A stretch of 11,925 nucleotides of DNA from a virus, in the IMG/VR virus record IMGVR_UViG_3300045988_126893, positions 1-11,925 of that record. One strand, 5' to 3'. Shown here piece after piece: positions 1 to 11,925 of this stretch; within the stretch, counting starts at the first letter, position 1, and each line of letters begins with the position of its first letter. The translations under genes and the position numbers were made by a program. The notes beneath the pieces were generated by a model that was given only the letters and a program-made list of their open reading frames with translations, was not told where the DNA came from and did not search any database.

Positions 1-147
1 CACCTATGAGATTTAACAACTTGTTCACATTTTCCCCAAACGATTTAATATGCTAAAGTGCTAAATCAATAAAGTGGGACCAAACATAATTAGTTAAACA
101 ACAAAACAAAGACATAAAAATATTACACAAACAATACAAAATGTTTA

Positions 148-176
148 TTGCAAAAACCCATTGACAGATGTATAAT
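148..176 (+). promoter_or_regulatory. SigA/sigma70-type promoter inside ITR-L, firing inward
   Basis: -35 TTGCAA (148-153), a 17-nt spacer and -10 TATAAT (171-176), lying 52 nt upstream of the first ATG. Confidence 0.7.
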
Positions 177-181
177 ATTAT

Positions 182-200
182 TGTAATCATTAAGATTACA
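182..200 (+). promoter_or_regulatory. 7-bp inverted repeat at the predicted transcription start. Either an operator or a 5' mRNA stem-loop.
   Basis: TGTAATC (182-188), a 5-nt spacer and GATTACA (194-200), immediately downstream of the -10 hexamer. It is duplicated in ITR-R. Confidence 0.45.
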
Positions 201-228
201 CAACAGATATTTAAGGAGTTGTTACAAT

Positions 229-534
229 ATGAAAATTAACGGCAAGAACATCAAAGGAATAAAAAGAACTGTAGGTAGATACAACAAGATACCAGTTGAC
301 AAACGAACATCATTTAATATCTGGTATGACTGGGTAACTAGCACTGTTATGTTGATTAGAAATGATATTTTTGACCAAAGCAATATGGGAGATGAACTAA
401 TTTGCGTAAACGGGTTTATGTACAGACGTTACGACGATGTTAGCGACTGTATCAACTGTGAATACCCATATCTGGGCGCTGCAAATATATCAATGTCAAT
501 GCTACGCAGTGTTTTATCACAATACCTAGTTTAA
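229..534 (+). CDS. ITR-encoded 101-aa protein, copy L. Function unknown; basic N-terminus and one CxxC pair.
   Basis: AAGGAG at 213-218 lies 10 nt before the ATG at 229. The ORF is intact and a paralogue sits at 11392-11697 with 88 of 101 residues identical. I recognised no family motif. Confidence 0.8.
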   Translation: MKINGKNIKGIKRTVGRYNKIPVDKRTSFNIWYDWVTSTVMLIRNDIFDQSNMGDELICVNGFMYRRYDDVSDCINCEYPYLGAANISMSMLRSVLSQYLV

Positions 535-590
535 ACGTGAAATAGAATAAAAACAATATTAATTTCAGTAATCCTAAGGAGTTGATTAAA

Positions 591-773
591 ATGTACAAGT
601 ACATACTACTATTTAACGGGCGTTCAGCAGAGTTTACCGATTTACAAATCGCACTACACGTTGCGTATTTGTTGGCCGAAGTATTTGACGTGGATATAGT
701 TGAATACACTAACGACGGTACAAACGAGTACGACGAGATAAGCGGCATAACAAGTATGAAATCGAGGAGTTGA
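591..773 (+). CDS. Small acidic early protein (60 aa), function unknown
   Basis: AAGGAG at 576-581 lies 9 nt before the ATG at 591. The track start, TTG at 582, abuts the SD and is unlikely. Asp/Glu clearly outnumber Lys/Arg. The stop is TGA at 771-773. Confidence 0.65.
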   Translation: MYKYILLFNGRSAEFTDLQIALHVAYLLAEVFDVDIVEYTNDGTNEYDEISGITSMKSRS

Positions 774-781
774 GTTCGGGA

Positions 782-1360
782 ATGCCTAAACCAATAATAC
801 CTGAGAAATTTGTGCAAGGTCTATCAGACAAGGCACTAAACGCGCAAATTAAACGTTATTCAAAACGTGCTAATAGCCGCATAGAGCGACTAAAACGTGA
901 GGGACTGTGGAATAATTCCGCAAGCATTCAACGCAACTGGGAGGCAGTAACACACACTGCACCCATCGGCACCAATTCAGGACGTTTCAGTCGTTCAGTA
1001 TCAGGGACCAGAGAAACCCGAGAGGTGCAGTTAAAGCAGTTAATTCGTTTCCTGAACGCAAAAACCACTGTCAAGGACGTTAAAAACGAGATTACAACAT
1101 TCAAAACAAAGATAACCGCCTATACTGGTAACACCCCCAGTGTCGACATCGTCGGCGCAATTAATCGACTAATAGGTCGGTATATGGGCGAATTTAAACG
1201 GTTCGGAATGTCATCAGAACAAGCATACCATATCATCACAGAACTGGGATACGGCAAAGGCGAACAGGATGCCGAAGATAGCATACTGCACGCTATACAA
1301 ACTGCCCAATCGAATGATGATTTTTTCCAAAAGGTTACCGAGAACTATACATATTACTAG
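782..1360 (+). CDS. Candidate terminal (priming) protein, 192 aa
   Basis: It lies immediately upstream of the protein-primed polymerase, as phi29 gene 3 lies next to gene 2. GAGGAG at 764-769 precedes the ATG at 782; the track TTG at 770 has no spacing to the SD. The N-terminal helix KRYSKRANSRIERLKREG is Lys/Arg-rich. The C-terminal part is acidic and ends in YTYY. The call rests on position and composition only. Confidence 0.45.
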   Translation: MPKPIIPEKFVQGLSDKALNAQIKRYSKRANSRIERLKREGLWNNSASIQRNWEAVTHTAPIGTNSGRFSRSVSGTRETREVQLKQLIRFLNAKTTVKDVKNEITTFKTKITAYTGNTPSVDIVGAINRLIGRYMGEFKRFGMSSEQAYHIITELGYGKGEQDAEDSILHAIQTAQSNDDFFQKVTENYTYY

Positions 1361-1378
1361 CAGGCAACGAGGAGAGTT

Positions 1379-3547
1379 ATGGAGTACGTTACAACGTTTG
1401 ATATAAATACATTACCTAACATTGAAACAGTGCGCAAACACAATACCAGCAAATGTGCATATATCAATGCACCATTTGCGTTTGATATTGAAACAACGTC
1501 ATACATAGATAATGACGGCAATAAACGTGCGTTTATGTATGAATTTTCAATGTCGCTGAATGGGGTTCCCGTGTATGGTCGTTACTGGTATGAATTCATG
1601 GGGGTTCTGCGAAAACTGAAACAACGCTATAAATTATCGCGTAAAAAACGCCTAGTAATATATGTTCATAACCTAGCATACGAATTTCAGTTTTTGCAGG
1701 GTCGTTTTCCAGTGTCGGACGTGTTCGCCCGGGTAAATCGTCACCCTATGAAATGTGTGATTGATGACTGTTTTGAATTTAGATGTTCGTATGTTTTGTC
1801 AGGGTTATCCCTAGCAAAAACAGCAGACCAAATAACAATCCACGATATAACAAAATTGACTGGTGACCTAGACTATAAAATAATCAGAACACGCAAAACC
1901 CCCCTAACCGAACAAGAACTAGCATATTGTGAAAATGACGTACAGATTATATACTGGTTCATAAAACAGGAAATGTTACAAAATGGTAACAGTATAGCTA
2001 ATATCCCGTTGACAAAAACGGGGTATGTGCGTAGATACTGTTATGAATACATTTCAACACATACCAATTTTGAACAATACCGAACATTTATCAAACACTG
2101 CGCCCCTACAGAACCAGAATTGTTCATATTAATGCACAAATGTTTTGCAGGTGGATTTACACATGCTAACGTCCTGCACGTTGGCGAAACGTGTGAAAAC
2201 GTGGGTGCTATAGATTTTACTAGCAGTTACCCTGCGCAAATGGTTCGTCACAAATATCCTATGACAAAATTTTACAAAGTGCCCGTAAATAACCGGAAAC
2301 AGTTTGAAACACTGGTGAACGCGAAGGCGTGTTTGATTGAAATCTGTTTAAAAGGGGTTAATGCTAAAACCCCTAACCATATAATTAGTAGTTCAAAATG
2401 CCAGTACGTTGAAAACGGAATATATGACAACGGGCGTATAGTATCAGCAGATAAGGTGTACACCTATATCACAGATGTTGACTATAACGATATTTGTGAA
2501 TTTTATGAAATTGACAAAATTCACGTTGTTCAAATGTGGGTTGCTAATTATGGATATCTGCCTGATGAATTTCTGCAATGCGTTTTGACATTGTTTTCAG
2601 ATAAAACAACATTAAAAGGTGTAAAATGTAAAGAACAGGAATATTTGCTAAAAAAAGGAATGTTAAACAGTGCATACGGAATGAGCGTTACAAACCCCGT
2701 AAACAATGAATGCGAATTTGTGGAAAACGATGATGATATAGGCGGATTTTGGCAAGATGTTGAACAGGATATAAACGGCGCGTTGTTGGATAGCTACATA
2801 GGGAACAATAAACAATTTCTATTATATCAGTGGGGTGTATGGGTGACTGCGTGGGCTAGGCATGAACTGTTCAGGGGTGTTTTGAAAATGGGGATTGACG
2901 TTGTATACTGCGATACTGATAGCATAAAATACCTACACCCCGAAAAATACAAAACGTGGATTGACGATTATAACGAACGTGTATTCAATGATATGTTGAA
3001 ACGCTGTGACGAAATAGGTGTTAGCCGTGATATGGTAAACCCCGTTACAATCAGGGGTGAACATACCCCCCTAGGGGTATTTGACTATGAGAAGACCTAC
3101 AAATATTTCAAAACACTAGGCGCGAAACGTTACGCATTTTCATACAATGGTGATGATTTTAGTATAACTGTTTCAGGATTGAACAAAAAAACGGCAGTGC
3201 CGTATATAATGGAATACTGTGAAAATCATAAAATCAGCCCGTTTGATTTTTTTGATGATAATATGTATATCCCTGCAGTCTATACAGATAGTAACGGCAA
3301 TGTTAAATATCCCACGGGCAAATCAACACTGTCATATAGTAACATAGGTGATGATTTTTCTGACAAAATCACCGACTACCTAGGCGAAACTGATGTTGTT
3401 GACGAAAACAGTTATATTCACATGACAGAACAGGACTATAGTCTCAGCCTAACGGTCGCGTTTTTGGAATATATTTCTAATTCACAATACGTTGACGGGG
3501 CTATGGAATGCCCTAAACCTGATTATCTGAAAATTTTAAAAATATGA
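1379..3547 (+). CDS. Protein-primed family-B DNA polymerase (phi29 gp2-like), 722 aa
   Basis: Exonuclease motifs are FDIET (ExoI), HNLAYEF (ExoII) and YCENDV (ExoIII). Polymerase motifs are IDFTSSYPAQM (A), KKGMLNSAYG (B), YCDTDS (C, nt 2906-2923) and LGAKRY (KxY). Motifs A and C nearly match remembered phi29 DVNSLYPAQM and YCDTDS. GAGGAG lies at 1369-1374. Confidence 0.95.
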   Translation: MEYVTTFDINTLPNIETVRKHNTSKCAYINAPFAFDIETTSYIDNDGNKRAFMYEFSMSLNGVPVYGRYWYEFMGVLRKLKQRYKLSRKKRLVIYVHNLAYEFQFLQGRFPVSDVFARVNRHPMKCVIDDCFEFRCSYVLSGLSLAKTADQITIHDITKLTGDLDYKIIRTRKTPLTEQELAYCENDVQIIYWFIKQEMLQNGNSIANIPLTKTGYVRRYCYEYISTHTNFEQYRTFIKHCAPTEPELFILMHKCFAGGFTHANVLHVGETCENVGAIDFTSSYPAQMVRHKYPMTKFYKVPVNNRKQFETLVNAKACLIEICLKGVNAKTPNHIISSSKCQYVENGIYDNGRIVSADKVYTYITDVDYNDICEFYEIDKIHVVQMWVANYGYLPDEFLQCVLTLFSDKTTLKGVKCKEQEYLLKKGMLNSAYGMSVTNPVNNECEFVENDDDIGGFWQDVEQDINGALLDSYIGNNKQFLLYQWGVWVTAWARHELFRGVLKMGIDVVYCDTDSIKYLHPEKYKTWIDDYNERVFNDMLKRCDEIGVSRDMVNPVTIRGEHTPLGVFDYEKTYKYFKTLGAKRYAFSYNGDDFSITVSGLNKKTAVPYIMEYCENHKISPFDFFDDNMYIPAVYTDSNGNVKYPTGKSTLSYSNIGDDFSDKITDYLGETDVVDENSYIHMTEQDYSLSLTVAFLEYISNSQYVDGAMECPKPDYLKILKI

Positions 3548-3561
3548 AAGGAGTGGTAAAC

Positions 3562-3894
3562 ATGGGTTGTACTGGCAATTACCTAAACGCTAGTGAAATA
3601 TGTGATTACAACACGGCTATGAAACAGTTAGCCGGGGCTGTCATTATACGATTAATCAATGATATGCAACAGAAAAACTATTGCATAAATTATTCCACGG
3701 ATGTAAACTATCGTAAACGTAAATTGTTCTATAGTGCCGTGGAATATCCCCTGCGTTATCCTGAATGGCTGAATTTTTGGCTAGCTACTGCAGATATGGA
3801 TACATATGCAGATGATATAATTGCAATGGCACGTGACAAATTTAAACAGGGGTATATTGAACCCCTGCGGAAAAAAGGAGTAAAGAATGAATAA
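3562..3894 (+). CDS. Hypothetical 110-aa protein between the polymerase and the ATPase
   Basis: AAAGGAG at 3547-3553 lies 8 nt before the ATG at 3562. An alternative ATG at 3544 overlaps the polymerase stop as ATGA. I recognised no catalytic motif. Confidence 0.65.
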   Translation: MGCTGNYLNASEICDYNTAMKQLAGAVIIRLINDMQQKNYCINYSTDVNYRKRKLFYSAVEYPLRYPEWLNFWLATADMDTYADDIIAMARDKFKQGYIEPLRKKGVKNE

Positions 3895-5005
3895 AATAAT
3901 TAACAAAATAATGGGAGCCCCAGTTGATGAGTATTACAGTTTAAAACGAATACTGAAAACTAATGCTACCTATAACATTATTTTCGGTAAACGTTCAAAC
4001 GGCAAAACATTCAGCGTTGTAGAACGGGCGTTAGAACACGGGTGGAAACTAGCATACATCAGGCGGTTCGACGAGGAAATAACTAGAAAAAATCTAAATA
4101 ATTTAGTATGTGCTGACCATGATATTGCGAAACATACCCACGGCCAATGGAATAGCTATTGTTTTCAGTCCAACTGTTTCTATTTTACACTGGTTGAAAA
4201 CGGCAAAGTTATAAAAAAATCGACTGAACCATTTATACATTGTTTCGCGTTGAACACTATGGAAACCACAAAGGGTGCAGATAATGGATATTTTCCTATT
4301 ATTTTGTTTGACGAATTCATAACTAGACGTTTTTATCTGCCTAACGAATTTGTATTATTCCAAAATATCCTATCATCTATCATACGTGACAGGGACGGTA
4401 GTGAAATATATATGTTAGCAAATACAGTCAATCAGTCATGCCCGTATTTTGCTGAAATGGGATTGACAAGAATTGACAAAATGAAACAGGGTGAAATACA
4501 AATAGTTGATTATGGCGACAGCGGTTTGCGCGTTGCCGTTGAATACTGCAACGACACCACAAACACGATGAAAACTGCTAAATATTTTGCGTTCGATAAC
4601 CCACAATTAAAAATGATAACTAACGGAAAATGGGAAATTAAGGGTTACCCACATTGTCCCATTTCTGTTAACCGTGACAACATAGCGTTTGTATTTTTTG
4701 TAATTTTCGAAGAACACATAATCAGGGGAAATATAGTCAATGACAACGGACACGTTTTTGTTATGTTTAATCCACACACCAACACCAACAGAACACCAGC
4801 AGAAAACGATGTAACATATAGTTTGGACGTTTCCCCGTATCCTATGTGGTGTCAATCTATCAACGAAACACCCACGGACGCACATAAAATCATCAGGGAC
4901 CTAATAAACCGCAATAAAATGTATTTTTCTGACAATACCACGGGCGAAATAATACGAAACTGGATAAAACAACAGGCACAAATAAAACAAACGTTTCTAT
5001 CATAA
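3887..5005 (+). CDS. DNA encapsidation (packaging) ATPase, phi29 gp16-like, 372 aa
   Basis: Walker A is GKRSNGKT (nt 3986-4009) and Walker B is IILFDEF. The block ILFDEFITRRFYLPNEFVLFQNILSSIIRDRDGSEIYMLANTVNQSCPYF parallels remembered gp16 IVFDEFIREKDNSNYIPNEVSALLNLMDTVFRNRERVRCICLSNAVSVVNPYF. AAGGAG lies at 3875-3880. Confidence 0.85.
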   Translation: MNKIINKIMGAPVDEYYSLKRILKTNATYNIIFGKRSNGKTFSVVERALEHGWKLAYIRRFDEEITRKNLNNLVCADHDIAKHTHGQWNSYCFQSNCFYFTLVENGKVIKKSTEPFIHCFALNTMETTKGADNGYFPIILFDEFITRRFYLPNEFVLFQNILSSIIRDRDGSEIYMLANTVNQSCPYFAEMGLTRIDKMKQGEIQIVDYGDSGLRVAVEYCNDTTNTMKTAKYFAFDNPQLKMITNGKWEIKGYPHCPISVNRDNIAFVFFVIFEEHIIRGNIVNDNGHVFVMFNPHTNTNRTPAENDVTYSLDVSPYPMWCQSINETPTDAHKIIRDLINRNKMYFSDNTTGEIIRNWIKQQAQIKQTFLS

Positions 5006-5009
5006 TAGT

Positions 5010-5040
5010 AAACCCCTATACCAATACAGTATAGGAGTTT
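5010..5040. terminator. Hairpin in the convergent intergenic gap. Probable bidirectional terminator.
   Basis: The stem is AAAC-c-CCTATAC (5010-5021) paired with GTATAGG-a-GTTT (5029-5040), with a 7-nt loop. It lies 5 nt after the ATPase stop. The flanks are A/T-rich but there is no long T run. Confidence 0.5.
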
Positions 5041-5050
5041 ATAATATTCC

Positions 5051-5084
5051 CGTCACTGGTACACGAATTAATCAGTGCGTGACG
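5051..5084 (-). terminator. Second, weaker hairpin after the stop of the tail gene
   Basis: CGTCAC (5051-5056) pairs with GTGACG (5079-5084); an alternative pairing is CACTG with CAGTG. The loop is long and there is no U tract. Confidence 0.25.
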
Positions 5085-5094
5085 TTGATTCCCA

Positions 5095-7182
5095 TTATAC
5101 AAATACACCGCTAGTCAATAACTGTGACAGCATGGTTTTTTCTGTGTCAGTGCATTTAAACGATATTTCAGGGTTGCTAACTACAGTGAACCCCGTAAAA
5201 TCGGACAGTTTTCCAGTTTGTTCGCACGCATAACCTACCGTTCGCCCATAATTGCTAGGTACGTTTAAAACAGGTCTGTCAATAATGAAATAACAGTGTT
5301 GCGGTTGCCACGTTGCAACAGACGGGGAACTTGAACCTGATTCTTGGTAATTAGTACCAGTTGCAAAACCACTATACAATTTTTCAGCACTGCTAACCAT
5401 ACCGCCAATATTTCCACTAGCAATTGACGTTACACCACCAACAGCACCGCTAACTACATTGCCGATAATTGTACTAGCGTAATTTGCACTGTCTGTTCCC
5501 GTCATTGGAATTGATACACCTACTACACCATTTCTGTAAATAAATGGTATATCGTCTTTAAACACGATTGCCGTTCCTGCACCCGTGGTATAGTCGACTA
5601 TCATTTTTACTGAAATTCTATGCCCCATAAATTCGGCTGTGGAAACAGGCACAACGCCTATATATGGGATATATAACTGTGCTGTTGTGTATGGTTCATA
5701 ATCCAGGAAATTTTTGAATTTAGTAAAAAATGTACATTCACCCAGGTCAATTAAACTGTTTACATTTTCCGTTAATTTAATACCGTTTACCCCCGTGTTT
5801 GTTCTGCCGATTACAATTGATTCAGCATTCGTTGCAGAATTTTTTAACGCTACATTAAACGGAAATAAACGCAAATCAATAATACCGTTCATAGGATTTT
5901 CACCCATTAACGCTAACCCTTTTACAATTTCTTGAAATTTTGTTTCGTCAGCGTTCCATAAGAAATCGGCTAATTGACGAACACTGTTTGATGTTACTGC
6001 GAAACTGCGGTTAAACACGTTAACGTTTGACAGTGTGGGTTTGTTTAGGTCTATTCTATCGGTGTAGTTGTTAGGGTCTGTATTACCTATTCCATTAAAT
6101 GGGTTATTCTGCCAATCGGTGGGGTTATCCCATGTTGTTTGAATTTGTTTTGCATTTTCTGCACCCTCTGAATATTTTCCAGTGATTTTTCCATCATCTG
6201 AAATAATACCACAATATATACCATTTTGGTTTAGATTTTCCTGCTTTGCTAAATTTGTCGAAAATGTGTAATAAGTTCCCATTCTGCTATATAGTTTATG
6301 AATGTTTTCGATACTATAATCAAAAACTGGTAAATATCCCGTATACTCTTTGCTACCAATAGCAAAATATGTTTTATCCCACAAATCTGCATAGCCTAAA
6401 TTTGCATAATAATATGTTTCGGTATTAAAATAACTAGCGTATAGTTCATCACATCCATAAATAAACGTATTTAAAACAGCGTGTGACTGGTCATAATCGC
6501 CAAAATATAACGCACCATAAATATCATAATTATCCACCATAGAATTTTTTGAATATGTGCAAAACGGTATTATATTAAAACCCTGACAGCGTTGTCTGTC
6601 ACCAATCGCCGTTCTAGAATAATATGGTACCGCATATATACCTACAACATTGTATGTATCTTTGTACTGTTTTTCAAACGTATCTACGTCAACATCTAAT
6701 TTATCACCAAATGACGATACGTCGCCCATACCAGAATATTCAAATCTATACGCTACCACTCGAATCAAAAAAAGAAAATCTTTTAACTTATACTCGGTGC
6801 CGAAATAATAGCCTAACCCATCATTCGTATCACTATCATATGCCAGTCTATGAAATGTAGTCTTAGCTGGGGTAGCATATACGGGGCGATTTTGTAATGT
6901 ATCATTAGTTTTTAATCTGCCAAACATAGCACATACACCACTAGGTGTGTTAGTACCGTTTACGAATTCAGATTGATGCGGTTTCCTATACCCACTGCGG
7001 ACAAAATAATCATCAGGGGGATTAAAATCGACGGCATAAAAAATTGATTCGTCAATAGGATTATTTAACTGTAATTTACCATTATCAATTAATTCCTGCA
7101 TCGACTGCGTGGTTTTTATTCCTTTTAGATAGTCTAATGATATAGTTCTATCACTGGAATAAATTTCCTTATTTAATTTCAT
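5095..7182 (-). CDS. Tail knob / distal tube protein, C-terminal portion (phi29 gp9-like core), fused to a lineage-specific N-terminal module of about 380 aa. 695 aa in total.
   Basis: GGAGGG lies 7 nt before the ATG at 7182. Three C-terminal blocks resemble remembered gp9. EPYTTAQLYIPYIG matches MMYPYCVTEITD. The Gly-rich hydrophobic loop IIGNVVSGAVGGVTSIASGNIGGMVSS (about nt 5353-5472) matches IMGMIGGGISAGASAAGGSALGMASS. The tail TDTEKTMLSQLLTSGV matches NNNDLQEIRTIFDNGI. Residues 1-380 have no match I recognise. Confidence 0.6.
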   Translation of the reverse strand: MKLNKEIYSSDRTISLDYLKGIKTTQSMQELIDNGKLQLNNPIDESIFYAVDFNPPDDYFVRSGYRKPHQSEFVNGTNTPSGVCAMFGRLKTNDTLQNRPVYATPAKTTFHRLAYDSDTNDGLGYYFGTEYKLKDFLFLIRVVAYRFEYSGMGDVSSFGDKLDVDVDTFEKQYKDTYNVVGIYAVPYYSRTAIGDRQRCQGFNIIPFCTYSKNSMVDNYDIYGALYFGDYDQSHAVLNTFIYGCDELYASYFNTETYYYANLGYADLWDKTYFAIGSKEYTGYLPVFDYSIENIHKLYSRMGTYYTFSTNLAKQENLNQNGIYCGIISDDGKITGKYSEGAENAKQIQTTWDNPTDWQNNPFNGIGNTDPNNYTDRIDLNKPTLSNVNVFNRSFAVTSNSVRQLADFLWNADETKFQEIVKGLALMGENPMNGIIDLRLFPFNVALKNSATNAESIVIGRTNTGVNGIKLTENVNSLIDLGECTFFTKFKNFLDYEPYTTAQLYIPYIGVVPVSTAEFMGHRISVKMIVDYTTGAGTAIVFKDDIPFIYRNGVVGVSIPMTGTDSANYASTIIGNVVSGAVGGVTSIASGNIGGMVSSAEKLYSGFATGTNYQESGSSSPSVATWQPQHCYFIIDRPVLNVPSNYGRTVGYACEQTGKLSDFTGFTVVSNPEISFKCTDTEKTMLSQLLTSGVFV

Positions 7183-7684
7183 GTGTTAGCCCTCCGTTCT
7201 CTGCTGTTCCTTGATTACTTCCACCTCCTGCCACATTTAGCACAAAGTTGTAACTATTTGCTGTGGCGGTATCTAAATTAAAATCACCTCCGGTAAACTC
7301 AATTACTTTAATTTCCTTATTACCTTTTAATGGTAACATTGTATCGGGAATGTATGTACTGCCTATGTTTTCGTTTCTAGTCACTAGAAACGTGCTGGAT
7401 AGTAGCACGTTTCGGTATGTGTGCAGAACGTCCAGTCTGCAGTGTATCAATATCGTGTTTGCGGTTTCGACTGTTTGACCCGTTACAAAATAGTACCTAT
7501 CAAAAAATGATATGTAGCAGTAGTTAGCGTTGAATGTTTCAGATGTACACCTAACACGTAACGTAGGTGTTACCATTTCAGCACTATCTAACAACTGGCA
7601 CGTGTAATCTATCTGATTAGTCAATGTTTTTGTAATCGTTCGTGGGTCATCTGCCGTGTGATATGTGTTTAGTATAAATGCCAT
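7169..7684 (-). CDS. Tail knob / distal tube protein, N-terminal domain encoded as a separate 171-aa gene
   Basis: AGGGGTGA lies 4 nt before the ATG at 7684. The track start at 7702 has no SD. PTLRVRCTSETFNANYCYISFFDRYYFVTGQTVETANTILIHCRLDVLHTYRNVLLSSTFLVTRNE aligns with remembered gp9 [72 protein letters not shown]. Confidence 0.6.
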   Translation of the reverse strand: MAFILNTYHTADDPRTITKTLTNQIDYTCQLLDSAEMVTPTLRVRCTSETFNANYCYISFFDRYYFVTGQTVETANTILIHCRLDVLHTYRNVLLSSTFLVTRNENIGSTYIPDTMLPLKGNKEIKVIEFTGGDFNLDTATANSYNFVLNVAGGGSNQGTAENGGLTHEIK

Positions 7685-7706
7685 ATTTTCACCCCTATTC
7701 AAATAT

Positions 7707-7734
7707 TAGCAGGGATATTATTATACCCCTGCTA
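7707..7734 (-). terminator. Hairpin directly after the capsid gene. Probable leaky terminator or attenuator.
   Basis: On the minus strand the sequence reads TAGCAGGG, a 12-nt loop, CCCTGCTA (an 8-bp stem), then AUAUUUG. It lies 12 nt after the MCP stop. Confidence 0.45.
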
Positions 7735-7745
7735 TATTATAGATT

Positions 7746-8900
7746 TTATGCCGCGTCATCGATAACAAACACAATGCAGTTTTCTGCCGTATCGTTCATG
7801 TACATAGCATCCCATTTATAATAGAATTTGGTTGTTTCATTGCTAGGGTTATAGAATGATGTTACCCTATAGTTTTCGCAACAAACCATTGCCGCGTCCC
7901 TATCAAACAGAACACCTACAACACCATTCTGGGTTACTGCCGTTTCAGAACCCTCGATAGTGACGTCAATTTTACTAGCCTCAGCAAACGCAACGTTTTC
8001 ATCTGTGCCGGAACCCTGCCACCATGGAACCGTGTCATATGTGCCAACTTTTACCAAATCATCATGAAAAGTGTCCGCCTGCATATTGGTTATCATTGCC
8101 TTGTCAAATTGTGACAACAGTGTTAGGTGCTGATATTCGTACGGGGTAAATGTTACATATGATGTATCATTATACAACATTGACATTTCTGTGATATAAT
8201 CACGATATAGCTGTATCTGTGTAGCCGCATATCTTAGGAAATTTTTATCAGTCAGTGCCTTTTCAGCCGTCAGCGTTGCTTTATATGCTGTGTTGTATTC
8301 TGTCAGCAGATTTACAACGTTATTTTTGCTGTGAATTTTCTGCGCAATCAGGTTATTTACTGTACGTTTTGCCAGTGACGTATTATAGAACGCCATTGCA
8401 GAACGTATACGATTTTCAATGTTTGCAAAAAATGCGTTCATAGTGGCAGGACCTGCAAAACTTGATTTGACCTGCTCATAACCATATGATACCTTGGTTT
8501 CATATGTTATCCTCTTATTCCAGTATTTGGTTGAAACATTTGGCGGTGTAAAAACTGCGAAATCGTCATATTTGGTGCCTGCCACCAGTTTCCATGTATC
8601 GTTCTCTGTAGCCTTTGGCAAATCAACCCTGATTTTTTCCAAAACTGAACCATATTCCCAGTTATCACGGATAATGTCAGGTGCACCGCCCGTGTATTTG
8701 CGGTCAACGTTAATCACCCTGCCGACCTTATCCATAATTTTTTTGACGTAGTTGTCAACGCCCCCGTCAGTGGTCAGAACATTAGTGAACGATCTGCCGA
8801 TATCGACTATGTTTGACAGGTCTTCGTTGACCACAGCACCCTCGCCTATCATTTCCTTGGAAATTTCATTCAGAATGGTTGCTATCTGTGTTACTTTCAT
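7746..8900 (-). CDS. Major capsid protein, phi29 gp8-like HK97 fold without the C-terminal Ig-like domain, 384 aa
   Basis: AGGAG lies 9 nt before the ATG at 8900. The C-terminal block LFDRDAAMVCCENYRVTSFYNPSNETTKFYYKWDAMYMNDTAENCIVFV parallels remembered gp8 [49 protein letters not shown]. The central block also corresponds: MNAFFANIENRIRSA against FESFVSSIINAIYNSA. Confidence 0.8.
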   Translation of the reverse strand: MKVTQIATILNEISKEMIGEGAVVNEDLSNIVDIGRSFTNVLTTDGGVDNYVKKIMDKVGRVINVDRKYTGGAPDIIRDNWEYGSVLEKIRVDLPKATENDTWKLVAGTKYDDFAVFTPPNVSTKYWNKRITYETKVSYGYEQVKSSFAGPATMNAFFANIENRIRSAMAFYNTSLAKRTVNNLIAQKIHSKNNVVNLLTEYNTAYKATLTAEKALTDKNFLRYAATQIQLYRDYITEMSMLYNDTSYVTFTPYEYQHLTLLSQFDKAMITNMQADTFHDDLVKVGTYDTVPWWQGSGTDENVAFAEASKIDVTIEGSETAVTQNGVVGVLFDRDAAMVCCENYRVTSFYNPSNETTKFYYKWDAMYMNDTAENCIVFVIDDAA

Positions 8901-8922
8901 ACTACATTACTCCTTTTTTTGT

Positions 8923-9618
8923 TTAATATATTGACAAACAAATTAGATTTGCTATATCATTTACAAATTGTGATAGGGCTGAAAAATCAGCTATTTCACG
9001 TTCAGATTGTATCATCTGCTGTGACGTGGTTACACCGATGTTGCCACTGCGTTTAAATTCATGTGTGGTTTTTTCAGTTCCCGTTGTGGTTGTTTTACCC
9101 GTTGACGAATTTTCTGTGCTGGTTGTGGTAGTGGTATCTGCAGTACCCTTATTTTGGTTGATAAAATCTGCGGTGTTATCATAGGTTGTTACTGCAGATG
9201 TATTTGTGCTACTGTCTGTGGCGTTTCCGCTAGATGTTCCACTAGCAGTTGTATTTGAAACTAAATCAGGGGTTCGCACGTCCGTTCCGTTTTCGGTCAT
9301 GGAATAGTTTTCTATGGGGTTATATTCCAGTTTTTCCGTAGCTAACAGTTTATTGTATTTGGTCTGATAGGTACGGGCGAATATAATGCAATAGTTAGTC
9401 AGCTGTGCTATTGCGTTAGTAGTTTCCTGCATGGTTGTGGGGTATTTTTTAAACACCAATCGTTCAGCATTATACAGTTGAAATAAATCAAATATTTCTG
9501 CAGGGGTTTCGCTGAAATTAATGAACGTTTTTACACCGCTGAAAATATTTTTGAATGTTGATATATTTTCATTCCAGTAATCAACAGTCGCAAACCCGTA
9601 GTTATCTATTTCACACAT
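8923..9618 (-). CDS. Virion structural protein, candidate lower collar (head-tail tube connector), 231 aa with a Thr/Ser-rich central segment
   Basis: AAGGGGTGA lies 5 nt before the ATG at 9618. The track start at 9660 has no SD. The gene sits between the portal and MCP genes. The N-terminal part is helical-looking. The polar Thr/Ser-rich segment of about 75 aa (nt 9061-9291) is bracketed by YNPIENY and GNIGVTTSQQMI, which fits a long beta-hairpin tube. The assignment is inferential; a scaffold role is not excluded. Confidence 0.4.
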   Translation of the reverse strand: MCEIDNYGFATVDYWNENISTFKNIFSGVKTFINFSETPAEIFDLFQLYNAERLVFKKYPTTMQETTNAIAQLTNYCIIFARTYQTKYNKLLATEKLEYNPIENYSMTENGTDVRTPDLVSNTTASGTSSGNATDSSTNTSAVTTYDNTADFINQNKGTADTTTTTSTENSSTGKTTTTGTEKTTHEFKRSGNIGVTTSQQMIQSEREIADFSALSQFVNDIANLICLSIY

Positions 9619-9799
9619 TGCGGTCACCCCTTGCGGACTGTGTTCCAAAATAGAACGCAATGACTGTGGTATAGATGTTCAGCAGTTCATTCCCCGTTAT
9701 TCTGCCGTTCATTGTTATCACCATTACTGTTATCGTCAGCAGTAGCGTTACTATCGATTTCACTGTTATCAGTTTCACCAATTTGTCTTTGGTTGTCAT
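9611..9799 (-). CDS. 62-aa protein with two predicted TM segments (holin-like), overprinted on the portal 3' end
   Basis: AAAGGGGGG lies 7 nt before the ATG at 9799. Hydrophobic segments are IVTLLLTITVMVITM and LLNIYTTVIAFYFG, and the C-terminus is charged. It overlaps the portal by 113 nt in another frame and the next gene by 8 nt (ATGTGTGA). Confidence 0.4.
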   Translation of the reverse strand: MTTKDKLVKLITVKSIVTLLLTITVMVITMNGRITGNELLNIYTTVIAFYFGTQSARGDRNV

Positions 9800-10679
9800 T
9801 ATTTAGCCCCCCTTTCCATTCTTTTGAAAAATCAACCGATATATTTGTGTTGAACATTGTGTTGATTTTTTTAACTGATTCGCGCAGGTTGTTCAGCATA
9901 TCAATAACGTTGATTATCAAACATTCATCATTAACGGCTATTTCTTCGCCGCTGACGCGTTCGCGTTTCATGTTATAGTTTGCATTTACACCAATTGAAT
10001 GATAGAATTGTGCCAAAATATACTGGTTCAGTTCGACCAGTTCTTTAATGTACTGGGAACCGCCTGCAGTGCTTTCAATCATGGGGTTGATTTTTAACGC
10101 ATTGATTAAATCATTTAAAACAACCTCATAGGGGTCCCCATCATACATTCGTTGTATTGCGTTTTCGGCAGATATCTTCTGCGCCTGATTACCTGCAGTT
10201 ACTAGGGCGGTTATACGTGTATTGCGTTGCGCTATGTTTATTGATGAAATGTTATCAGCTAACAGTTGCGCAGTTGTGGATATTAACCCGAACAAACCGC
10301 CCGTTTCACCATTACTACATATTTTGTCAGTATCGGTTAGATACATTAAAACACCCGTTTTGTCTATATCTACTATTTTACTGCCTAGAATTGGATTTGC
10401 TATAATGAATTGTGACGGGTAGTAATAAACGTTAGGTTCGCCACCATAATTGCCGTTTAGTGCATACAGTTTCGAATTAAAATCAGTCCATATAACACGA
10501 CCCTGCGTAATTAGTGTTATTGCTAAAAAATTTTCGTCAACTGTTTCAGGTAGGTTCTCCCACGTGAACATATTTGTTACACGATTTAACAATGTTTTCA
10601 CATAGTAGTTATACATTGATTTTACCTTGTTGACCTTAACGCATTCAGGTAACCATTCCCGTGACTTGTCTTTGCTCAT
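9687..10679 (-). CDS. Portal / upper collar connector protein, phi29 gp10-like, 330 aa
   Basis: AAAGGGGTGA precedes the ATG at 10679. FTWENLPETVDENFLAITLITQG matches remembered gp10 [23 protein letters not shown]. Size is similar, and the N-terminus is basic. The C-terminal tail is Asn/Asp-rich and looks disordered. Confidence 0.85.
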   Translation of the reverse strand: MSKDKSREWLPECVKVNKVKSMYNYYVKTLLNRVTNMFTWENLPETVDENFLAITLITQGRVIWTDFNSKLYALNGNYGGEPNVYYYPSQFIIANPILGSKIVDIDKTGVLMYLTDTDKICSNGETGGLFGLISTTAQLLADNISSINIAQRNTRITALVTAGNQAQKISAENAIQRMYDGDPYEVVLNDLINALKINPMIESTAGGSQYIKELVELNQYILAQFYHSIGVNANYNMKRERVSGEEIAVNDECLIINVIDMLNNLRESVKKINTMFNTNISVDFSKEWKGGLNNDNQRQIGETDNSEIDSNATADDNSNGDNNERQNNGE

Positions 10680-10705
10680 TTTCTCACCCCTTTGTCTATC
10701 GACAG

Positions 10706-10732
10706 AACGTGGTAACTTTGTGTTACCACGTT
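10706..10732 (-). promoter_or_regulatory. Perfect 11-bp-stem hairpin or palindrome between the SSB and portal genes
   Basis: AACGTGGTAAC (10706-10716), a 5-nt loop and GTTACCACGTT (10722-10732). No U tract follows on either strand. Confidence 0.6.
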
Positions 10733-10746
10733 ACAGCCGATTGAAT

Positions 10747-11085
10747 TTACTGTATCTGTAGTGAATAGAATTCGCCGTTTTTAGATTTTCCTTTTACAAA
10801 TCTTACCTTTACTTCTTCGCCTGCGTTCAGACACTCGCTGAGAATATCTGCCAATTCGTCCATGTGGTCAATGCAAACCTTTGACGCGAACCCAAAAACG
10901 CCGACATCTGTTGCAATATATCCTATATCACATGGGGTCTGATTCCTATCCAAACCGCCATTTTCTACTACTGCGCATCCTGAAACAGTGTGCCACTCTG
11001 CCGCCTCTGCTGTTTTGATTGAAATACTACCGCTCTTTGCATTAAAAATATCCTTCTTGTTCATGTTGACATTAAAACCGTTCAT
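10747..11085 (-). CDS. Single-stranded DNA-binding protein, phi29 gp5-like, 112 aa
   Basis: AGAGGT lies 8 nt before the ATG at 11085. The C-terminus LADILSECLNAGEEVKVRFVKGKSKNGEFYSLQIQ matches remembered p5 LIDLVTRHKLETFKVKVVQGTSSKGNVFFSLQLSL. The N-terminal IFNAKSGS matches IFNAQTGG. Confidence 0.55.
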   Translation of the reverse strand: MNGFNVNMNKKDIFNAKSGSISIKTAEAAEWHTVSGCAVVENGGLDRNQTPCDIGYIATDVGVFGFASKVCIDHMDELADILSECLNAGEEVKVRFVKGKSKNGEFYSLQIQ

Positions 11086-11354
11086 TTTAATTTACCTCTT
11101 TCTGTTAAAATTTTGTAAATATTTGTCATACATTACAGGGTCAGTGCCAGCTCTTAATTTACTATAATAGGGGTCTGTCTATGCCTGCCTTGTATACACT
11201 CACTTAACCGCCATGTGTGTAAATTATCGTGCGTATGTAAAATCATACCTACAATTTTTCAATATTATATTATAATATTGGCGGTTTGGAATAGGGCTGA
11301 TTATTTATTCACGTCAACCCTGCGGACCGTGTGAAATCTATTAAATGTGGTTAC
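11086..11354 (-). ncRNA. Long non-coding leader, or a candidate structured RNA (pRNA-like), transcribed from the 11361-11389 promoter
   Basis: This is the largest non-coding stretch in the genome and has no SD-preceded ORF. It has a start-site hairpin (11342-11361) and a second hairpin at 11308-11335. An 8-bp long-range complement pairs 11206-11213 with 11279-11286. There is a 19-nt AT palindrome at 11261-11279. An AU-rich hairpin at 11114-11137 is followed by AAAAUUUU. RNA identity is hypothetical. Confidence 0.3.
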
Positions 11355-11361
11355 ACATTTA
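11342..11361 (-). promoter_or_regulatory. Inverted repeat at the predicted start site of the right-arm promoter
   Basis: AAATGTG (11343-11349) pairs with CACATTT (11354-11360) across a 4-nt loop, and one flanking T-A pair extends the stem. Confidence 0.4.
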
Positions 11362-11389
11362 GTATAACACATAAATAGTGAATTGTCAA
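11361..11389 (-). promoter_or_regulatory. Near-consensus SigA promoter with an extended -10, heading the right arm
   Basis: The minus strand reads TTGACA (11389-11384), a 17-nt spacer ending in TGt, then TATACT (11366-11361). It starts 2 nt after the stop of the ITR-R gene. Confidence 0.75.
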
Positions 11390-11391
11390 TG

Positions 11392-11697
11392 TTAAACTAT
11401 GTATTGTGATAAAACACTGCGTAGCATTGACATTGATATATTTGCATTGCCTAGATATGGGTATTCACAGTTGATACAGTCGCTAACATCATCGTAACGT
11501 CTGAACGTTATCCCGATATCGCAAAATATTTCATCTCCCATATTGCTTTGGGCAAACATATCATTTCTAATCAACATAACAGTGCTAGTTACGCAGTCAT
11601 ACCAAATATTAAATGATGTTCGTTTGTCAACTGGTATCTTGTTGTATCTACCTACAGTTTTTTTTATTCCTTTGATGTTCTTGCCGTTAATTTTCAT
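11392..11697 (-). CDS. ITR-encoded 101-aa protein, copy R (diverged paralogue of 229-534)
   Basis: It mirrors copy L exactly in position, with an identical SD and 5' region. It differs by 13 amino acids and 3 synonymous changes, and the ORF is intact. Confidence 0.8.
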   Translation of the reverse strand: MKINGKNIKGIKKTVGRYNKIPVDKRTSFNIWYDCVTSTVMLIRNDMFAQSNMGDEIFCDIGITFRRYDDVSDCINCEYPYLGNANISMSMLRSVLSQYIV

Positions 11698-11725
11698 ATT
11701 GTAACAACTCCTTAAATATCTGTTG

Positions 11726-11744
11726 TGTAATCTTAATGATTACA
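11726..11744 (-). promoter_or_regulatory. Mirror copy of the 7-bp inverted repeat at the ITR promoter start site
   Basis: Reverse complement of 182-200. Confidence 0.45.
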
Positions 11745-11749
11745 ATAAT

Positions 11750-11778
11750 ATTATACATCTGTCAATGGGTTTTTGCAA
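11750..11778 (-). promoter_or_regulatory. SigA-type promoter inside ITR-R, firing inward (mirror of 148-176)
   Basis: The sequence is identical to the left promoter because it lies in the perfect part of the ITR. Confidence 0.7.
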
Positions 11779-11925
11779 TAAACATTTTGTATTGTTTGTG
11801 TAATATTTTTATGTCTTTGTTTTGTTGTTTAACTAATTATGTTTGGTCCCACTTTATTGATTTAGCACTTTAGCATATTAAATCGTTTGGGGAAAATGTG
11901 AACAAGTTGTTAAATCTCATAGGTG

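Follow-up and report, generated by a model that had tools for sequence, protein, structure and literature searches.

In phage φ29, the early genes nearest the termini are 17 and 16.7 on the right and 56 and 1 on the left; the inverted terminal repeat (ITR) is only 6 bp long, and these genes lie outside it, unduplicated. The general context of φ29 is given elsewhere (PMC4974454). Expansion of ITRs with duplication of genes is known from poxviruses (PMC10230479, PMC11680203), and for adenovirus and PRD1 there is a proposed model of panhandle repair or end-to-end conversion between ITRs (Savilahti & Bamford 1993; Wang et al. 1991; discussed in PMC11886824). Small podoviruses related to Astrithrvirus include Salmonella phages astrithr, assan, and Astrid, Acinetobacter phage Phanie, and Pectobacterium phage DU_PP_III (PMC11476376). 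The DNA analysed here, called the window throughout, is the whole 11,925-bp stretch of IMG/VR record IMGVR_UViG_3300045988_126893 (positions 1 to 11,925), a linear molecule that looks complete, with a gap-free inverted repeat at its exact ends. It is a complete 11.9-kb φ29-like, protein-primed podophage of the human gut, and each of its repeats carries a copy of a gene encoding a 101-amino-acid (aa) protein. The locus represents a known phenomenon, the extension of an ITR boundary that duplicates a terminal gene, here with incomplete concerted evolution around an island of divergence in a predicted β-hairpin. The features concerned are as follows.

1..534, plus strand: left ITR; positions 1-265 identical to the right end, 266-534 92.9% identical with 19 differences
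11392..11925, minus strand: right ITR, mirror of 1-534
229..534, plus strand: copy A, 101-aa ORFan gene, presumably early, the derived left-end paralogue, hairpin LIC-VNGFMY
11392..11697, minus strand: copy B, the same gene at the ancestral right-end position, hairpin IFC-DIGITF
397..423, plus strand: patch in copy A, codons 57-65; predicted β-strand 57-60, turn 61-62, β-strand 63-66
11503..11529, minus strand: mirror patch in copy B, same hairpin predicted
369..435 (mirror 11491-11557), plus strand: core divergence block, with codons 47, 49, 57, 58, 60, 61, 63, 64, 65, and synonymous 69
148..190 (mirror 11736-11778), plus strand: overlapping σ70-like promoter matches in the ITR, from a consensus scan
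213-218 (mirror 11708-11713), plus strand: ribosome-binding site (RBS) AAGGAG, read from the sequence

When the two ends were compared by BLAST, they aligned over 534 nt without gaps and with 96.4% identity, and the homology was lost immediately 3' of the stop codon at 534. The identical outer part (nt 1-265) covers the 228 bp upstream of the gene and its first 12 codons. The two copies, both 101 aa long, differ at 19 nucleotides in 16 codons, 13 of them nonsynonymous and 3 synonymous, and seven of the nine codons 57-65 are different (LICVNGFMY in copy A and IFCDIGITF in copy B). All of these counts reproduced those of a first-pass annotation of the same DNA, which had called the patch nonsynonymous-biased and read it as a sign of selection for two distinct variants. 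The differences are clustered, as nine of the 19 fall within 26 nt (permutation p = 2.8e-4 over the whole open reading frame [ORF] and 7.2e-4 over 266-534), and the clustering was still significant with the two- to threefold patch rate of other family pairs (p = 0.0025 to 0.02). Eight of the nine patch differences are transversions. At the protein level, L57I, Y65F, and the I58F/F63I swap are conservative replacements, and V60D, N61I, and M64T are radical ones.

Structures predicted for both copies with AlphaFold2 and the family alignment gave a compact α/β fold for copy A (mean predicted local distance difference test [pLDDT] 96.0, predicted template modelling score [pTM] 0.86) and copy B (pLDDT 95.7, pTM 0.86), with the same secondary structure in both, and the patch mapped to the same β-hairpin in each (strands 57-60 and 63-66). 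The turn of this hairpin contains G62, present in 98 of 101 sequences, and the core divergence block corresponds to the end of helix α3 together with the β-hairpin 57-66. Across approximately 100 homologues, variability is highest in segment 51-66; the most conserved surfaces are the N-terminal region, the RYDDxSD motif, and the YPYLGxxNIS loop, the hairpin not being among them. The first 30 residues are very basic (pI ~11) and the remainder is acidic (pI 4.1). The hairpins of the family fall into discrete, internally conserved types, namely xFTD-ELGF[ST]Y (the majority), LIC-V[SN]GLMF, xFC-xIGI[MT]F, RYEDESGL…, and MFTDNIGN…, within which real hypervariability is limited to position 57. Copy A is of the LIC-V[SN]GLMF type, and copy B of the xFC-xIGI[MT]F type together with the homologues P0006 and P0008. 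A poorly constrained linker was rejected as a description of the patch, given a β-hairpin predicted at pLDDT >90, a near-invariant turn glycine, and strong conservation within types.

The arrangement with copy A at the left and copy B at the right was found in every contig in which both ends are seen, with identical patch sequences. A MEGAHIT assembly of ERR209823 (L022) is 99.99% identical to the window and carries A and B copies identical to those of the window, contig ERZ27259294 k141_94739 holds an exact copy A at its left (L041) and a B-type copy at its right (L019), and UMHL01042805 (L042) includes partial A and B copies with the patch in both. Contigs showing a single end agree, with copy B beside the structural arm (L018, L020) and copy A beside the putative terminal protein (TP) and DNA polymerase (PolB) genes (L021, L060); altogether, copy A or a near-identical copy stands at the left end beside TP/PolB in L021, L022, L041, L042, and L060. 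The patch lies ≤138 nt from unique arm sequence, so that a k-mer of 141 or a single read ties each allele to its arm. Within each type, the patch is 100% identical (four A-type and five B-type sequences from different samples), and this identity holds even in strains with a swapped tail gene (58% identity).

Variable sites were tabulated for these four A-type and five B-type DNA sequences, with both copies comparable in three genomes. Synonymous variants specific to a strain occur in both of its copies, such as 243T, 276C, and 277C in the left and right copies of ERZ27259294 and 390G in both copies of UMHL01042805. Copies A and B of the window first differ at nt 266, those of the other two genomes at nt 333, and the differences at 266, 321, 474, and 478/479 are present or absent depending on the genome. 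In the protein variants P0237-P0243 (90% clusters), residues 13, 35, 84, and 100 are shuffled between types, and P0243 is a mosaic that combines W35, then M47, A49, and the B hairpin, then A84, and finally I100. In its noncoding part, the ITR of the window is only ~77% identical to that of L017, yet its own two ends match each other at 100%. Because strain variants are common to both copies, the flanks are shuffled, and the ends are identical, these patterns fit a graded homogenisation between the ends, which would act on the repeat without keeping the gene copies identical throughout, identity being confined to nt 1-265 in the window and 1-332 in the two other genomes. Fourteen differences are constant in all three genomes (333, 369, 374, the nine patch sites, 435, and 526), 12 of them within the 67 nt of block 369-435, an island that has escaped homogenisation. 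Conversion through a panhandle or from end to end would be the mechanism that we infer here.

The origin of the left copy is indicated by the relatives. The closest full-length ones (L017, L023, L025, and L031), with ATPases ~94-95% identical to that of the window, carry one copy of the gene, at the right end, as does L038 with its single copy. In the former four, homology between the two ends stops within ~9-12 nt of the ATG, and the first ORF at the left end of single-copy relatives shares only the promoter, RBS, and start-codon region. That position is taken by a 53-aa gene (MLKFKLLFG…), and behind it lie a membrane-like ORF of 61 aa and another ORF of 86 aa; of these, most or all are absent from genomes with copy A. 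Even in distant relatives, in which PolB is ~50% identical and the gene order is different, the single homologue is still the first gene from a terminus. The window therefore differs from relatives that have a shorter ITR and a single copy in that the whole ORF lies in both repeats. As these relatives are single-copy at the right, with an ITR ending near the start codon, the comparison shows an ancestral state consisting of a core ITR of ~240 nt with promoter, RBS, and start codon and of one right-end gene, and an extension of the ITR in the lineage of the window, inward exactly to the stop codon, by which the left-hand paralogue was created.

Both promoter matches (TTGCAA-17-TATAAT at 148-176 and TTGACA-18-AATCAT with a TG at 161-190) and the RBS lie inside the identical part of the ITR, so the predicted expression signals of copies A and B are identical. 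The left accessory region of the window (535-770) is plastic; it keeps a 60-aa ORF (591-773), a paralogue of the 53-aa MLKFKLLFG… gene, and window nt 586-764 are missing entirely from L021, L041, L042, and L060. In L037, the ITR contains at 66-115 a 12-nt tandem repeat (AAGATCTAGGTC, ~4 copies), of which there is none in the ITR of the window. L037 and L017 also reach ~5 nt past the first base of the window, which may lack a few terminal nucleotides.

The selective regime was evaluated against the background of the family. Outside the hairpin, pN/pS (the ratio of nonsynonymous to synonymous differences per site) is 0.17-0.23 in all pairs between lineages, and for the hairpin within one type (copy A and P0005) pN is 0.09 and pS 0.86, which indicates that the 101-aa gene, including its hairpin, is normally under purifying selection. 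The gene contains 243.7 nonsynonymous (N) and 59.3 synonymous (S) sites and, by the Nei-Gojobori method, Nd = 15 and Sd = 4 between copies A and B, an excess of N over this background (binomial p = 0.003 for ω0 = 0.2). A test of the McDonald-Kreitman (MK) type contrasted fixed A/B differences, ~12 N : 2 S, with variation within types, 4 N : 7 S (Fisher p = 0.017; p = 0.006 by codon counts), a contrast that is suggestive only, given the small sample of nine sequences from recombining paralogues. The A/B excess of N, this contrast, and a patch excess beyond the two- to threefold hot-spot ratio indicate that the paralogues probably diverged through a burst of amino-acid replacements, after which both came under constraint. 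Such a burst is compatible with adaptive divergence and also with a transient relaxation after duplication and compensatory repacking of the hairpin. Polarisation by outgroups was ambiguous, the outgroups themselves being split between both hairpin types; it suggests that both copies have changed, copy B perhaps more within codons 47-64.

The explanation that we favour as a whole, with no more than moderate confidence, is an extension of the ITR followed by the maintenance of two hairpin alleles with two specificities. The ITR has been extended over the single right-end gene to its stop codon, and the second copy at the left has replaced a group of small accessory ORFs. Homogenisation between the ends keeps the outermost part of the repeat identical and reaches irregularly into the gene, while the 67-nt core has escaped conversion as two stable haplotypes, A at the left and B at the right. 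Both copies, intact and with the same predicted fold and expression signals, are now under purifying selection, and the hairpin would be a specificity-determining surface element of a presumably early protein, so that the lineage would carry two specificities. By analogy of position with the terminal early genes of φ29, to which the gene has no homology, an early accessory role is favoured, such as host takeover, anti-defence, or the handling of genome ends or replication, with the hairpin as a putative variable recognition element.

Searches for relatives of the protein gave little. The 101-aa protein had no match in Pfam, PHROGs, NCBIfam, or PADLOC, none in GenBank phages (tblastn), and none in GTDB genomes; against the PDB, no informative match was obtained in a profile search (best E 0.069) or with Foldseek (best E 0.66). 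The lone match in BFVD was weak, an uncharacterised 87-aa metagenomic protein (E 5e-3), and an exhaustive search of 1.84 billion representatives with a hidden Markov model (HMM) retrieved only four credible clusters. The gene family is confined to one sublineage of the clade of ~12-kb gut phages.

Several observations weigh against two selected specificities. For the whole gene, dN/dS (the rate ratio of nonsynonymous to synonymous substitutions) between A and B is 0.91 (Fisher p = 0.77) and not above 1; for block 47-69 it is 1.0, and for the hairpin alone it is ~2 on Nd/Sd of 8/1, which is not significant (p = 0.64). The 13:3 ratio that the first-pass annotation took as evidence of selection matches the neutral expectation, because 244 N and 59 S sites give a dN/dS of 0.91; that annotation had itself accepted that a dN/dS indistinguishable from 1 would refute it, which is the outcome here, and the excess exists only relative to the family background. 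Protein-only variants (K6T, R17S, S51C, and A84N/V) add nonsynonymous polymorphisms without countable synonymous counterparts to the MK-like contrast. One copy suffices in most relatives, and in the 12,030-bp relative L023 the single copy (11564-11867, minus strand) is split over two reading frames: compared with the intact P0010, it has an indel of 1 nt near codon 48, so that it is either a pseudogene or the product of an assembly error in a T-run. P0237 and P0238, both on an 11,745-bp contig of the Joint Genome Institute (JGI), have A-type hairpins and differ only at residue 100, which suggests, from the cluster table alone, an apparent A/A genome; a scan of JGI metagenomes yielded a single close relative. 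The first-pass annotation had also conceded that a poorly constrained linker with indels would undo its proposal; the patch is predicted as a β-hairpin at pLDDT 96 and not as a linker, but homologues do show a 1-residue indel in this segment, and the hairpin is deleted in two distant members, P0098 and P0099. Five of the seven hairpin replacements exchange one hydrophobic residue for another, the I58F/F63I swap among them, and fit compensatory repacking as well as a changed binding surface. Finally, no functional homologue was found, so that the role of the hairpin as a specificity element is one that we infer.

A neutral island of divergence is another explanation that is possible, if rather doubtful. 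It assumes that one or both of the redundant copies were relaxed for a time and that a first substitution in the tightly packed hairpin drove compensatory co-substitutions, with no difference in function implied, and that the resulting local divergence of ~18% leads to heteroduplex rejection, which would block conversion while the flanks stay homogenised. The ω of ~0.9-1.0 equals the neutral expectation, the residues of the hairpin change together in the family, forming discrete types, the replacements L57I and Y65F and the I58F/F63I swap are conservative and of the core type, the flanks are demonstrably homogenised and the core is not, and the gene looks dispensable or redundant in relatives, judging from single copies, the frameshift in L023, and the hairpin deletion in P0098 and P0099. 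Against this, variation within types is mostly synonymous in both copies, indicating strong current constraint, the hairpin is strongly conserved within a type by the pN and pS given above, and the radical replacements V60D and N61I (both flanking the turn glycine) and M64T affect positions that differ between types.

An import of the hairpin block is unlikely. By this account, a short tract from a co-circulating allele of another type replaced the block in one copy, and the cluster of differences would reflect old divergence between lineages, that is, ordinary phage mosaicism. The A/B divergence in the patch (9/27 nt) does equal that of lineages differing by 12-15% elsewhere, copy B shares F58, I61, I63, and F65 with P0006 and P0008 and is 5/27 nt from them as compared with 9/27 from copy A, the mosaic P0243 proves that short tracts are exchanged in this gene, and mosaicism is rampant in the tail gene and the left-arm cassette. 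However, no sampled donor is nearer than 5/27 nt, and D60 and T64 occur only in copy B. Copies A and B agree at the synonymous sites of codons 50-56, 59, 62, and 66-68, where P0005, P0006, and P0008 differ from them, and the codons shared by the two copies, including GAA56, TGC59, GGG62, and AGA-CGT-TAC 66-68, would reduce the tract to only ~26 nt, with interruptions. The block contains a single unambiguous synonymous difference (435). Import is therefore possible and appears less likely than change in place.

It is highly improbable that an assembler threaded two strains with identical ITR copies into a chimeric A/B contig. The data come entirely from short-read metagenome assemblies, in which the outermost 265 nt of the repeat cannot be assigned to either end; nevertheless, the A-left/B-right order was obtained with different assemblers and k-mers from independent samples (the JGI window, ERZ913277 with k127, ERZ27259294 with k141, and UMHL01042805), the patch allele is linked to its arm within the short distance noted above, and strain-specific synonymous variants common to both copies of a contig are unexpected for a chimera of two strains, so that an artefact is largely refuted already. 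A related suspicion, that homologue contigs of 500-1200 bp are collapsed identical ITRs, was rejected for the two checked (L037 and L039), which continue into unique sequence of the right arm. Targeted hypermutation of the patch by a diversity-generating retroelement or similar is scarcely credible and was rejected, for despite the tight clustering in a short coding segment and the predominance of transversions (8/9), no reverse transcriptase gene was found in the window, the block has no third copy that resembles a template, neither direction of substitution shows adenine specificity, and strains of the same type do not vary in the patch.

Returning to the maintenance of two alleles, the proposal of the first-pass annotation, two functionally distinct variants under selection rather than drift, is partly borne out; its candidate targets for the patch were a host factor, a defence component, or a DNA site. 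Stable and intact variants, the MK-like contrast, and an ω above the family background speak for it; a dN/dS near 1, the apparent A/A genome, the single-copy relatives, and the frameshifted copy speak against it. The observation is real and moderately interesting, and the evidence goes part of the way towards two variants that are maintained and probably distinct in function. If the alleles are functionally distinct, the locus would be a compact natural case of duplication by ITR extension followed by divergence despite concerted evolution, and it would offer a handle on an uncharacterised early family in which the discrete types form a testable specificity map. A bolder version, which we regard as fairly unlikely, is that the ITR acts as a generator of paralogues and that selection keeps two co-expressed hairpin specificities apart against gene conversion, as a built-in two-allele early effector. 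Were this true, a host factor or defence protein that exists in two forms among Hominimerdicola/Ruminococcus populations might be recognised in both by the effector, and the hairpin types of the family would be the specificity repertoire of a new class of ORFan early effectors in an abundant clade of gut phages. If the divergence is neutral, the locus would still show clearly how deep into a protein-primed ITR homogenisation extends and how an island of divergence resists conversion, a case of specialist interest only.

The remainder of the genome is organised in two arms, with the following main features.

770..1360, plus strand: putative TP, from its position directly upstream of PolB
1379..3547, plus strand: protein-primed family B DNA polymerase (PF03175, 3.9e-9; phrog_1907, 1.3e-59)
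3887..5005, plus strand: φ29 gp16-type DNA encapsidation ATPase (PF05894; phrog_2150)
5095..10679, minus strand: structural arm with a 695-aa tail protein, a 177-aa protein, the major capsid protein (MCP), a 245-aa protein, and the connector
7746-8900, minus strand: φ29-type MCP (PF25622 on identical proteins, L020 and L022)
9687-10679, minus strand: connector (PF05352 on identical proteins, L020 and L022)

The left arm encodes on the plus strand the 101-aa ORF, the 60-aa ORF, the putative TP, PolB, a 116-aa ORF, and the gp16-type ATPase; the right arm lies wholly on the minus strand and encodes the tail protein, the φ29-type MCP, the connector, a 112-aa protein resembling a single-stranded DNA-binding protein (SSB), and the second 101-aa ORF. 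Coding density is 91%, and the large ORFs are all explained as replication, packaging, or structural proteins. The 196-aa ORF directly upstream of PolB has no family match and is a putative TP by position alone. A linear genome with ITRs is supported by the 534-nt inverted repeat and by other assemblies, which stop within ~5 nt of the same terminus. By MCP, the closest cultured phages are Astrithrvirus-like podoviruses of 11-12 kb (38-43% identity). Because 5,482 clusters of ATPase homologues (E <= 1e-60) were found in gut metagenomes, on contigs of 12-15 kb, the phage belongs to a very abundant clade of miniature φ29-like gut phages.

Further differences among these genomes concern the right arm. 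The 112-aa protein (10747-11085, minus strand) has only a weak SSB match (phrog_14995, E 0.03), and at the same position close relatives encode a PF00436 SSB of 125-130 aa, which suggests that the protein of the window is a divergent SSB or a non-orthologous replacement. The tail protein (5095-7182, 695 aa) is mosaic among genomes that are otherwise 97-100% identical, with 58% identity overall in L018, and an alternative N-terminal half is common to L018, L042, and L060 from about nt 6127 of the window, with a breakpoint nearby; this looks like a swap of a receptor-binding or tail module. A sister clade in IMG/VR (L002-L016, 12.4-13.2 kb) has PolB and ATPase sequences ~50% identical and a different gene order, in which the 101-aa homologue lies at one terminus and is convergent with the genes for ATPase, PolB, tail protein, MCP, connector, and SSB, all of them on the opposite strand. 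The 112-aa SSB-like protein is nonetheless 85-89% identical between this clade and the window, and the tail protein up to 91%, which points to a recent exchange of the SSB-like and tail modules between the two clades.

A possible host link was provided by a CRISPR-bearing contig. Positions 1-7110 of L060 are the start of a 170,214-bp contig (European Nucleotide Archive ERZ1304282 NODE_31), which begins with a leader fragment and the CRISPR repeat GTCACGCTCCACGTGAGCGTGTGAGTTGAAAT, enters the phage at about nt 6 of the ITR, runs for 6.9 kb through the left arm, and exits the phage in the tail gene to an inverted repeat, a leader, and the type I-C genes cas2-cas1-cas4-cas7-csd1 (L061, L062). The Cas1 protein encoded there matches that of Hominimerdicola aceti strain Sanger_31 at 100% identity, and the CRISPR array of that strain contains the same repeat 35 times. 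The contig resembles the path of an assembler through two alternative spacers next to the leader, both derived from the phage, one of them from the extreme terminus of the genome. Since two leader-proximal spacers appear to have been acquired from the phage, the host is probably a Ruminococcus-like species of Clostridia (Hominimerdicola/Ruminococcus), if this reading of the spacers holds. The phage sequence upstream of the tail-gene protospacer is TTT/CTT, not the canonical TTC, and the reference arrays contained no spacer matching the phage. This CRISPR-linked assignment to cultured Hominimerdicola aceti makes experiments conceivable.

Directly downstream of copy B, a gene-free region of 306 nt (11086-11391, minus strand) opens with the best promoter match of the window (TTGACA-17-TATACT with a TG), which is invariant in nine relatives, and its conservation stays at ~85-90% even in relatives in which identity of the adjacent 101-aa protein drops to 68%. 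Structural support is weak: RNAalifold predicted three helices with four compensatory pairs, and the single-sequence z-score is -1.9; an Rfam search returned no match to a packaging RNA and no RNA overlapping the patch. The region is a candidate structured RNA, possibly a φ29-like packaging RNA. In L038, a 78-aa ORF is inserted into the equivalent region.

In comparison with the known systems, one parallel in process is the expansion and contraction of poxvirus ITRs (monkeypox virus MPXV 2022 and MVA CR19), in which the inner boundary has likewise moved inward and a gene of one end has become diploid, and poxvirus relatives have differing ITR boundaries, as do the relatives of the window. However, the ITR copies of poxviruses are normally identical, whereas the inner 269 nt of the window repeat are 7% diverged with a fixed two-allele block; the poxvirus genome is hairpin-ended and the window is an 11.9-kb protein-primed phage, in which, unlike in poxviruses, the duplication covers just one ORF of 306 nt and ends precisely with the stop codon. 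With adenovirus and PRD1 (PMC11886824), the window shares linear, presumably TP-capped DNA with ITRs whose outermost repeat is identical within a genome and diverges between genomes. The ITRs of those replicons are ~100 bp long and non-coding, whereas homogenisation in the window seems to be graded and to fail across a coding block, with a mechanism that is suggested here by sequence patterns. The terminal early genes of φ29 resemble the 101-aa gene in being small, in being the first transcribed inward from a genome end, and in being dispensable or variable among relatives, but the 101-aa protein has no sequence or fold similarity to any φ29 protein. Finally, the Astrithrvirus-like podophages of 11-14 kb agree with the window in genome size, PolB, gp16 ATPase, φ29-type MCP, and connector; they differ in carrying no 101-aa homologue, in the low identity of their MCP (38-43%), and in their Gram-negative hosts, as opposed to the Clostridia indicated here.

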